Shown one piece after another: positions 47,301-48,850 of a stretch of DNA of 60,332 nt (its first letter is position 1; every line of letters starts with the position of its first letter). The translations under genes and the position numbers were made by a program. The DNA is from an uncultured Collinsella sp. (GTDB taxonomy: Bacteria; Actinomycetota; Coriobacteriia; Coriobacteriales; Coriobacteriaceae): assembly GCA_905204365.1 (NCBI GenBank), contig CAJKZO010000001.1:1-60332 (forward strand), written 5' to 3'. The notes beneath the pieces were generated by a model. That model searched no databases and was not told the DNA's origin. It saw nothing but the letters and a program-made list of their open reading frames with translations.

Positions 47301-48850
47301 GCTGGGATCTTTCCACCCGTCGTCCGGTCGCCATCGGTACCGCGGTCGGCATTATTGCCGCCCAGTCCATCGGCGAGCCCGGTACGCAGCTTACGATGCG
47401 TACCATTCACTCCGGCGGCGTCGCTGGCGTCGACGATATTACGCAGGGTCTGCCTACGGTCAGCCGTATGTTCGATATCGTCGGTAACGTCAACGAGAAG
47501 ATTCTGGGTCGCGAGGCCGAGCTGGCTCCGTACTCCGGCCACCTCTCGATTAAGCCCGAGAAGTCCGAGTACGTGCTGACGCTCACCGACTCCGAGGATC
47601 ACACCCGTGTCCTCGACGAGCGTCGCGTCCCCGCTTCGGTGCGCTTTATGCCCGAGATCGAGGACGGCTGCGAGGTTCGCGCCGGCGACCAGATCACCAA
47701 GGGCTTCGTCAACTTCCGCAACCTGCGCAAGCTGACCGACATCGAGTCGACGATGCACACCTTCGTCGAGAGCGTTAAGGACGTCTACACCAGCCAGGGC
47801 GTCGACCTGAACGACAAGCACATCGAGGTGCTCGCACGTCAGATGCTGCGTCGCGTTCAGATCACCAACCCCGGCGACTCCAAGTACCTGCTTGGTCAGT
47901 ACGTCGACCGCTATGAGTTCGCCGACGAGGTCGAGCGCGTTGCCCGTCTGGGCGGTCAGGCTCCCGTGGCCGAGCCCGTCATCCTGGGTACGCTCAAGGT
48001 CGCGTCCAACATCGACTCCTGGCTGTCGAGCGCTTCGTTCATCCGCACCGCCGGCGTCCTTACCGAGGCTGCCATCGAGGGCAAGGTCGACCACCTGCTC
48101 GACCTTAAGTCCAACGTCATCGTCGGTAAGAAGATCCCGGCTGGTACTGGCCTCAAGCCGTACGCCAACGCCAAGCTGACGTATCGCACGGCCGATGGCT
48201 ATGTCGACATCGACGGCCCGGCTTCGCCCAACGCCAAGTCGCTGCCCGAGTGGGCTCCTGTGGAGCTCAAGGACCTGGACGAGCAGCTCCCGCAGCAGCT
48301 CGACTGGGCCGGCTACGACGAGTTCGGTGGTGCTGACGGTTCGTTCACCCGCAACGGCCACACCATCTCCGCCGAGAAGGCTCGCCTGTACCTGTTCGAT
48401 GACCTGGGCGTGTCGCAGCGCTGGACCAACAAGTTCAGCGAGGTCGGCATCGAGACGGTCGGCGACCTGGTCGGCAAGTCCGAGGAGGATCTGCTGCGCA
48501 TCGATGGCATCGGTGCCAAGGCGATCGAGGAGCTCCGTGATGGCCTCGAGGCCCACGACCTGCTCTACATCCTCGAGAACAACGACGACGTTGCCGACGA
48601 GGAAGACCTCTCGCAGCTTCTGCAGATGGTCTTTAGCCCCGACGGTCCGGACGACATCCTGCTGGGCACCTCCGCCGCGCCGACGCATCACGCCGACGCT
48701 GACGAGGAGCTCCTGGGCGCCCCGATCGACGACAAGAAGGCTCCCGCCAACGGTGCCATCAACGAGGACATGGCTTCCCTCGACGAGCTGCTCAACCAGC
48801 TCGTGGACACCGACGACGCCGAAGAGGCCAAGGACAACGACGAGGAGTAA
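44372..48850 (+). CDS. rpoC: RNA polymerase beta' subunit with a C-terminal extension
   Basis: NADFDGD, zinc ribbon, [18 protein letters not shown] and IPAGTG; GTG start with TAAGGAG RBS (TTG 44366 is an alternative). Confidence 0.99.

Follow-up and report, generated by a model that had tools for sequence, protein, structure and literature searches.

What does the C-terminus of the beta' subunit of RNA polymerase carry in Collinsella, and what might it contribute to the enzyme? In the window, by which we mean the whole stretch of 60,332 nucleotides analysed here, rpoB (40874-44365) directly precedes an rpoC gene whose product continues for 232 residues beyond IPAGTG, where the initial annotation had counted about 230. 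We analysed the composition, relatives, fold and phylogenetic distribution of this extension and weighed several explanations of its role.

Layout of the beta' C-terminus

The rpoC frame encodes a beta' subunit, scoring 1526.5 bits with the TIGR02386 rpoC model (cut-off 963.5) and containing the five Rpb1 Pfam domains, and the beta' proteins of its relatives in databases have similar lengths of 1492-1494 amino acids. Beyond IPAGTG, the extension consists of an acidic tether, a small domain similar to the alpha subunit's C-terminal domain (alpha-CTD), and a polyanionic tail (Table 1). The tether segment reads LTYKGQ...LPDWAPEELKEIEALLP (residues 1293-1309 in the window) and is followed by a variable acidic linker and then by the domain; both P1294 and P1309 are invariant in all 21 aligned tails. 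The domain has a net charge of -6 and the tail of -26, and the extension as a whole has a pI of 4.05, in agreement with the very acidic tail described in the initial annotation.

According to the alignments within the class, the polyanionic tail occurs in such form only within the order (families f1-f4), where it is about 90 residues long, whereas outside the order beta' stops a few residues past the domain. The order-specific tails share a conserved SQLLxMVFSPD motif and an LDxLL helix close to the end.

Table 1. Features of the window beta' subunit and its C-terminal extension
Feature	Residues	Window position	Strand	Remarks
rpoC, beta' subunit	1494 codons + stop	44366-48850	+	open frame; Rpb1 Pfam domains 1-5
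IPAGTG	1257-1262	48134-48151	+	last motif common to beta' of other bacteria
Acidic tether	1263-1337	48152-48376	+	net charge about -7
Conserved tether motif	1293-1309	48242-48292	+	kept across the class, including beta' forms that end in zinc fingers
Alpha-CTD-like (HhH)2 domain	1338-1403	48377-48574	+	PF03118, model, Foldseek
Polyanionic tail	1404-1494	48575-48847	+	29 D+E vs 3 K+R
Conserved tail helix	1412-1423	48599-48634	+	7/7 order sequences; predicted helix, pLDDT about 70
Amphipathic helix near C-terminus	1466-1481	48761-48808	+	predicted, block pLDDT up to 80; LDxLL pattern kept in the order

Region downstream of rpoC

The rpoC stop codon is followed at window positions 48855-48965 by two GC-rich inverted repeats recognized by eye, namely ccgccgttc...gaacggcgg and a second repeat, ggcagggcat...atgccctgcc, with a T run after it. 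A simple terminator scan reported neither of them and proposed just a weaker site at 49031-49048. The region directly downstream of rpoC (49076-50705, plus strand) has a lower GC content (0.50-0.55 vs about 0.63) and encodes an ECF-type sigma factor with Sigma70_r2 and r4_2 matches. The sigma gene overlaps the start of a 358-amino acid open frame with a sub-threshold match to DUF4179, which may encode an anti-sigma factor.

Coding potential and constraint of the extension

High-GC genomes do yield long spurious open frames. For example, an antisense frame of 2629 amino acids spans rpoB and rpoC in the window (40802-48691, minus strand); it is not a gene and is free of stops because rpoB and rpoC contain no TTA, CTA or TCA codons. 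The extension might likewise be an artefact of a missed stop, a frameshift or misassembly, or else a neutral, decaying appendage of beta', and we searched for evidence bearing on this explanation. Its codon usage equals that of the core in frame: the extension has a GC3 of 0.88 and the core one of 0.86, and the mean codon log-likelihood, scored under the usage of rpoB and the rpoC core, is -3.41 in frame vs -5.33 and -5.74 off frame, the core itself scoring -3.47. The initial annotation had likewise noted core-gene codon usage. An ungapped comparison of 711 nucleotides, from PAGTG to the last codon, was possible for 12 relatives (loci L036, L037 and L039 were left out owing to a one-residue indel); these differ from the window at 13-22 nucleotides but at 0-1 amino acids in 237 codons. 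All 94 genomes of the order have this extension in frame, and a curated NCBIfam model spans it (see below). No specific support was found for an artefact or a decaying appendage, and we consider this explanation very improbable. These data show that the extension is a translated, selected, class-wide feature of the Coriobacteriia RNA polymerase.

Identification of the domain

The RNA_pol_A_CTD profile (PF03118; gathering cut-off 23.8 bits) matches residues 1345-1395 with 37.9 bits (E 1.4e-9) when the last 253 amino acids are used as query, and with 34.9 bits (E 1.2e-8) on the whole beta' subunit; in the genome search, the beta' site scores 40.2 bits. The helix-hairpin-helix profile HHH_5 (PF14520; cut-off 27 bits) remains below its cut-off both on the beta' extension (20.9 bits) and in the genome search (23.8 bits). 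Members of PF03118 are located at the alpha C-terminus, after the N-terminal dimerisation domain, whereas here the domain lies in the C-terminal part of beta'.

When the last 253 amino acids were compared with PDB sequences by phmmer, the best matches were alpha-CTD chains, including that of B. subtilis (1z3e_B, E 5.5e-6), and with a profile built from 21 tails the alpha-CTD matches improved to E-values of 7e-13 through 1e-9. Among the best 60 of the 196 PDB matches of this profile there is no NusA chain, and no solved beta' subunit aligns past profile position 47, so that, within these best matches, no solved structure contains the extension. The AlphaFold2 model, built from the alignment of 21 sequences, has a block pLDDT of 92-96 at tail positions 101-160, which fall inside the domain. 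The tether is modeled with low to medium pLDDT as two short hairpins and one helix, and the region after the domain contains two lower-confidence helices (Table 1) and is otherwise mostly disordered. Every top Foldseek match to this model in PDB is an alpha-CTD, with TM(target) of 0.79-0.85 and rmsd of 1.3-1.9 A over 55-70 columns; the E-values are merely 1e-3 to 1e-2 because the domain is small (60 residues).

The alpha-CTD-family assignment made in the initial annotation is thus upheld by profile, PDB sequence search and fold, and the NusA-AR-like option that it had offered alongside corresponds to the sub-threshold HHH_5 match. The peptide LFDD...RDGL on which it had based the assignment is present in beta' (residues 1343-1394, window positions 48392-48547); its true end lies 18 nucleotides short of the 48565 originally given. 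We regard the identity and reality of an alpha-CTD-family module on beta' as nearly certain.

This long form of beta' is already catalogued, since the NCBIfam model NF011498 (PRK14906.1, a beta' equivalog for the long form with 1459 positions) covers the window protein end to end, scoring 2589 bits over positions 2-1454 with a cut-off of 1437; the last 253 amino acids alone match model positions 1215-1454. NCBI's older name for PRK14906 presumably refers to the fusion of beta' with an alpha domain. PF03118 also comes precomputed for each of the 120 relatives listed, the source names of which give just "DNA-directed RNA polymerase subunit beta'". On the other hand, a full-text search of the openly accessible literature found no paper describing a beta'/alpha-CTD fusion. 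The initial view of the feature as uncharacterised therefore holds for the literature that was searched and not for the databases, and the window beta' is best described as a typical representative of a long-form beta' family that is catalogued but apparently has yet to be studied.

Alpha subunit and other polymerase genes of the genome

PF03118 matches two places in the genome, the beta' site and a 314-amino acid frame on contig C14, which by its 97.4-bit match is rpoA with a canonical CTD. Since rpoA keeps its own CTD, a point that the initial annotation had proposed to check, the enzyme would carry three alpha-CTD-type modules. Both copies pass the PF03118 cut-off in each of ten other genomes of the class that were checked, with 85-104 bits for rpoA and 27-45 bits for beta'.

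The extension was also considered as a replacement for omega or delta. A 98-amino acid frame gives a weak omega match (24.5 bits vs a cut-off of 26), and omega is probably present; a profile search of the genome, the assembly of which is 94.55% complete, found no HARE-HTH (delta) gene.

Phylogenetic distribution of the beta' fusion

The fusion was found in the named relatives Collinsella, Enorma, Coriobacterium (glomerans) and Raoultibacter. We then used the extension as query in a sample of 201 genomes of the class, taking at least two matches per genome as a proxy for the fusion and not as a copy number. By this measure, all 94 genomes of the order (families f1-f4, including the source genome) and 56 of the 107 other class genomes have at least two matches, and the second matches listed sit in open frames of about 1380-1600 amino acids where the contig allows. 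The fusion therefore occurs throughout the order and in many other Coriobacteriia families; the initial annotation had proposed to check its distribution.

In a phylum-wide sample of 401 genomes, including 15 unpublished genomes with one match each, genomes outside the class mostly have one match of rpoA size. Three exceptions to this single-match pattern were checked. One of them is G257, with a beta' frame of 1381 amino acids. Another genome outside the class, G228, has a beta' frame of 1441 amino acids, and its region is identical to that of a record labelled uncultured Gaiellales (L115 = L044). Within the class of G228, the Gaiellales-labelled family f46 has an alpha-CTD-like domain on beta' in all 21 genomes, and the extension query did not find the fusion in the other nine families sampled. 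The G228 domain does not keep the positions equivalent to E. coli R265 and N268 (its sequence reads ...PTYVHSVL...).

In the third exception, G215 (family f40; L117 and L118), also outside the class, beta' has two tandem alpha-CTD-like domains and rpoA has two tandem CTDs, which would give up to six alpha-CTD-type modules per enzyme; the gene after rpoC in this genome resembles ribosomal protein S7, as judged by eye from its translation. An 84-amino acid open frame in G057 (contig C6, 19871-19999; L132) scores 22.9 bits with RNA_pol_A_CTD, against the cut-off of 23.8, and may encode a stand-alone alpha-CTD-like mini-protein.

In a maximum-likelihood tree of 40 domain sequences, which has low resolution with its 66 columns, the 21 beta' copies of Coriobacteriia all fall to one side of a branch supported at 92/93, and the beta' copies of other lineages stand on long, unresolved branches among the rpoA CTDs. 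This topology fits, without proving, a single acquisition within the class and independent events in the other lineages. Judging by branch lengths, the beta' domain evolves faster than the rpoA CTDs.

Zinc-finger heads in sister families

Families of the class with a match in rpoA only still have long beta' frames of 1418-1466 amino acids. Their tails retain the tether motifs LPEFAPEELxELEAMLP and DVSxFxGxxFEP and end in two Cys-x8-Cys-x10-Cys-x2-His repeats that are rich in Lys and Arg. Among five exemplar tails (loci L143-L147, from G003, G149, G006, G089 and G075, respectively), four match zf-TRM13_CCCH and/or DUF5763 above the cut-off; zf-primase, zf-C3Hc3H and WRC give sub-threshold matches. 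Since these sister families keep the tether motifs yet end in zinc fingers, the tether is the constant part of the extension and its head the exchangeable one.

The zinc-finger head was found at E <= 1e-20 in 40 genomes of the class sample, in frames that are beta'-sized or ended by the contig end. It is present in 30 of 34 genomes of family f6, in all seven of f23, in the single genomes of f14 and f16, and in one of two from f25. Weaker matches in long frames were detected in G111 (f17) and G175 (f21). It should be noted that this finger is also present in other, smaller proteins across the class.

The swap to basic zinc fingers suggests that the job of the tether is to carry a nucleic-acid binder. 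Counting against the explanation preferred below, TRM13-type CCCH fingers may have RNA and not DNA as their ligand.

Residue conservation and charge

We take the DNA-contact residues of the E. coli alpha-CTD to be R265, N268, C269, G296, K298 and S299. With E. coli numbering anchored on the K-12 rpoA record, the equivalents of R265 and G296 are Arg and Gly in all 21 beta' copies compared, K298 is represented by Lys in 18 and N268 by Asn in 14 of them; C269 is replaced by Lys in 18 copies and S299 by Ala in all 21. The window domain keeps four of these positions as R1352, N1355, G1383 and K1385 (the equivalents of R265, N268, G296 and K298, respectively) and has the same Lys and Ala replacements at the other two. 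The Arg and Asn that the initial annotation had assigned to DNA-contact positions thus align with R265 and N268.

Additional positions distinguish the beta' copies from the alpha-CTD. Gly is found in place of both N294 and E261 in all 21 copies, Trp replaces S266 in 20 of 21, and K271 is lost, the beta' signature being Gly 261, Trp 266, Lys 269, Gly 294 and Ala 299. The second hairpin of the beta' copies reads G-I/V-G-x-K-A, which we assume to be nearer to the classical DNA-backbone-binding HhH consensus than the hairpin of the alpha-CTD itself. The beta' domains of the class, with net charges of -2 to -9, are more acidic than the rpoA CTDs (n = 12), which are nearly invariant and canonical and have net charges of 0 to -3. 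With the changes at S299, E261 and K271, the canonical alpha-CTD surfaces are only partly kept in the beta' copies.

Proposed role of the extension

The explanation that we prefer is a three-part beta' C-terminus, in which a 75-residue acidic tether, an (HhH)2 domain and a 91-residue polyanionic tail would form a nucleic-acid arm moderated by its acid tail; we give this explanation as a whole a probability of about one half. The domain would act as a third, long-tethered arm touching nucleic acid, added to the normal alpha subunit. Its probable target would be the backbone or minor groove of promoter-flanking DNA, with the conserved Arg (R1352) and a Gly-Ile-Gly hairpin making the contact, and the acidic tether and tail would compete in cis, keeping the binding weak or conditional. 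We infer nucleic-acid contact because the equivalents of R265 and G296 have stayed invariant while the domain otherwise evolves faster than the rpoA CTDs, because Lys has been gained at position 269, and because heads have been swapped for basic zinc fingers. This contact mechanism taken by itself falls a little short of even odds: a domain with a net charge of -6 resembles protein-binding acidic HhH repeats, its conserved Arg might just as well contact a protein, and with S299, K271 and E261 lost there is room for protein docking of the kind known for NusA acidic repeats.

The same observations lead to an alternative in which the extension is a docking pad, the acidic (HhH)2 domain and tail recruiting or holding a basic partner, for example an activator, sigma region 4, the alpha-CTDs of the same enzyme or a nucleoid protein. 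The model for such a pad is E. coli NusA, in which the acidic repeats AR1 and AR2, both (HhH)2 domains, have alpha-CTD and lambda N as binding partners. Docking would fit the net charges of the domain and the tail, the two predicted and conserved tail helices, which look like short binding motifs, and the sub-threshold HHH_5 match of 20.9 bits, HHH_5 being, as we take it, the Pfam family that covers the NusA acidic repeats. A substitute in cis for the NusA repeats is also conceivable, because none of the seven HHH_5 matches of the genome falls on contig C55, which carries its own NusA (a 451-amino acid frame). However, RNA_pol_A_CTD outscores HHH_5 on the domain and passes its cut-off, which HHH_5 does not; the R265 and G296 equivalents are invariant despite the faster evolution of the domain; and the head that replaces it in the sister families is a pair of basic zinc fingers rather than another acidic module. 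We therefore consider docking less likely than the preferred explanation.

The zinc fingers also bear on a third explanation, according to which the arm acts after initiation by contacting nascent RNA, the RNA exit region or a trailing ribosome, with effects on pausing, termination or transcription-translation coupling. The CCCH finger family matched by the sister-family head takes its name from a tRNA methyltransferase, and the C-terminal end of beta' is positioned next to omega, on the side of RNA polymerase that contacts the ribosome in some expressome structures. Nevertheless, nothing in the present results points to RNA, the known ligands of alpha-CTD-family domains are DNA and proteins, and the sub-threshold finger matches (zf-primase, zf-C3Hc3H and WRC) carry DNA-associated names, which makes a post-initiation arm improbable.

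Extending the nucleic-acid arm to the whole class, we tentatively propose, with less confidence than for the contact mechanism itself, that Coriobacteriia have an undescribed modular arm, a conserved acidic beta' tether with interchangeable nucleic-acid-binding heads: an alpha-CTD-derived HhH domain in most families and two CCCH fingers in f6, f14, f16, f23 and one of two f25 genomes. With such an arm, the core enzyme itself would gain a further contact for reading promoters or DNA, which the polyanionic tail would tune in the gut-associated order.

Comparison with known systems

Similar to the alpha-CTD, the beta' domain belongs to the same family by HMM, has the same fold, and is attached by a flexible linker at the C-terminus of its subunit. 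It differs in sitting on beta', on a tether of about 75 residues, in being more acidic, and in having an acidic tail after the domain. The likeness to NusA AR1 and AR2 is that both are acidic double helix-hairpin-helix modules located C-terminally in a transcription protein, the window domain differing in its family profile, as described above.

For the tail, the closest parallels are the C-terminal tail of the B. subtilis delta subunit and region 1.1 of sigma-70, acidic segments that are thought to compete with nucleic acid. All three are long, disordered and strongly acidic segments on RNA polymerase, whereas the segment described here follows an HhH domain and is part of beta' itself, in cis.

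Clade-restricted accretion of small domains onto a large subunit is also seen in the BEAN/HABAS insertions in beta and beta', as described in a survey from 2024 on the domain architecture of the two subunits (PMC11515920); those are internal insertions of other folds, whereas the beta' module described here is terminal. The survey states that residues lying outside the shared core at either terminus were masked, so that a terminal module such as this one is not covered by it (PMC11515920). In the accessible part of a paper on HelD, Coriobacteriia are mentioned solely in the HelD context (PMC8655204).

Implications for transcription in Coriobacteriia

What is new here, beyond the catalogued long form of beta', are the sister families that combine the same tether with two CCCH fingers, and a Gaiellales-labelled family with an alpha-CTD-like domain on beta'. 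One tether with exchangeable heads, and the recurrence of the fusion in another actinobacterial family, make the arm worth following; as a concrete target that is simple to truncate, it lends itself to in vitro transcription and cryo-EM. It also shows that terminal extensions, as masked in published domain surveys, can conceal functional modules.

Recruitment of RNA polymerase by bacterial activators and UP elements goes mainly through the alpha-CTD, of which the textbook enzyme carries exactly two copies. Coriobacteriia, including abundant human gut and oral genera, build a third, differently tethered copy into beta'. This third copy, together with the head swap, suggests that promoter architecture or the regulation of the core enzyme differs in Coriobacteriia.
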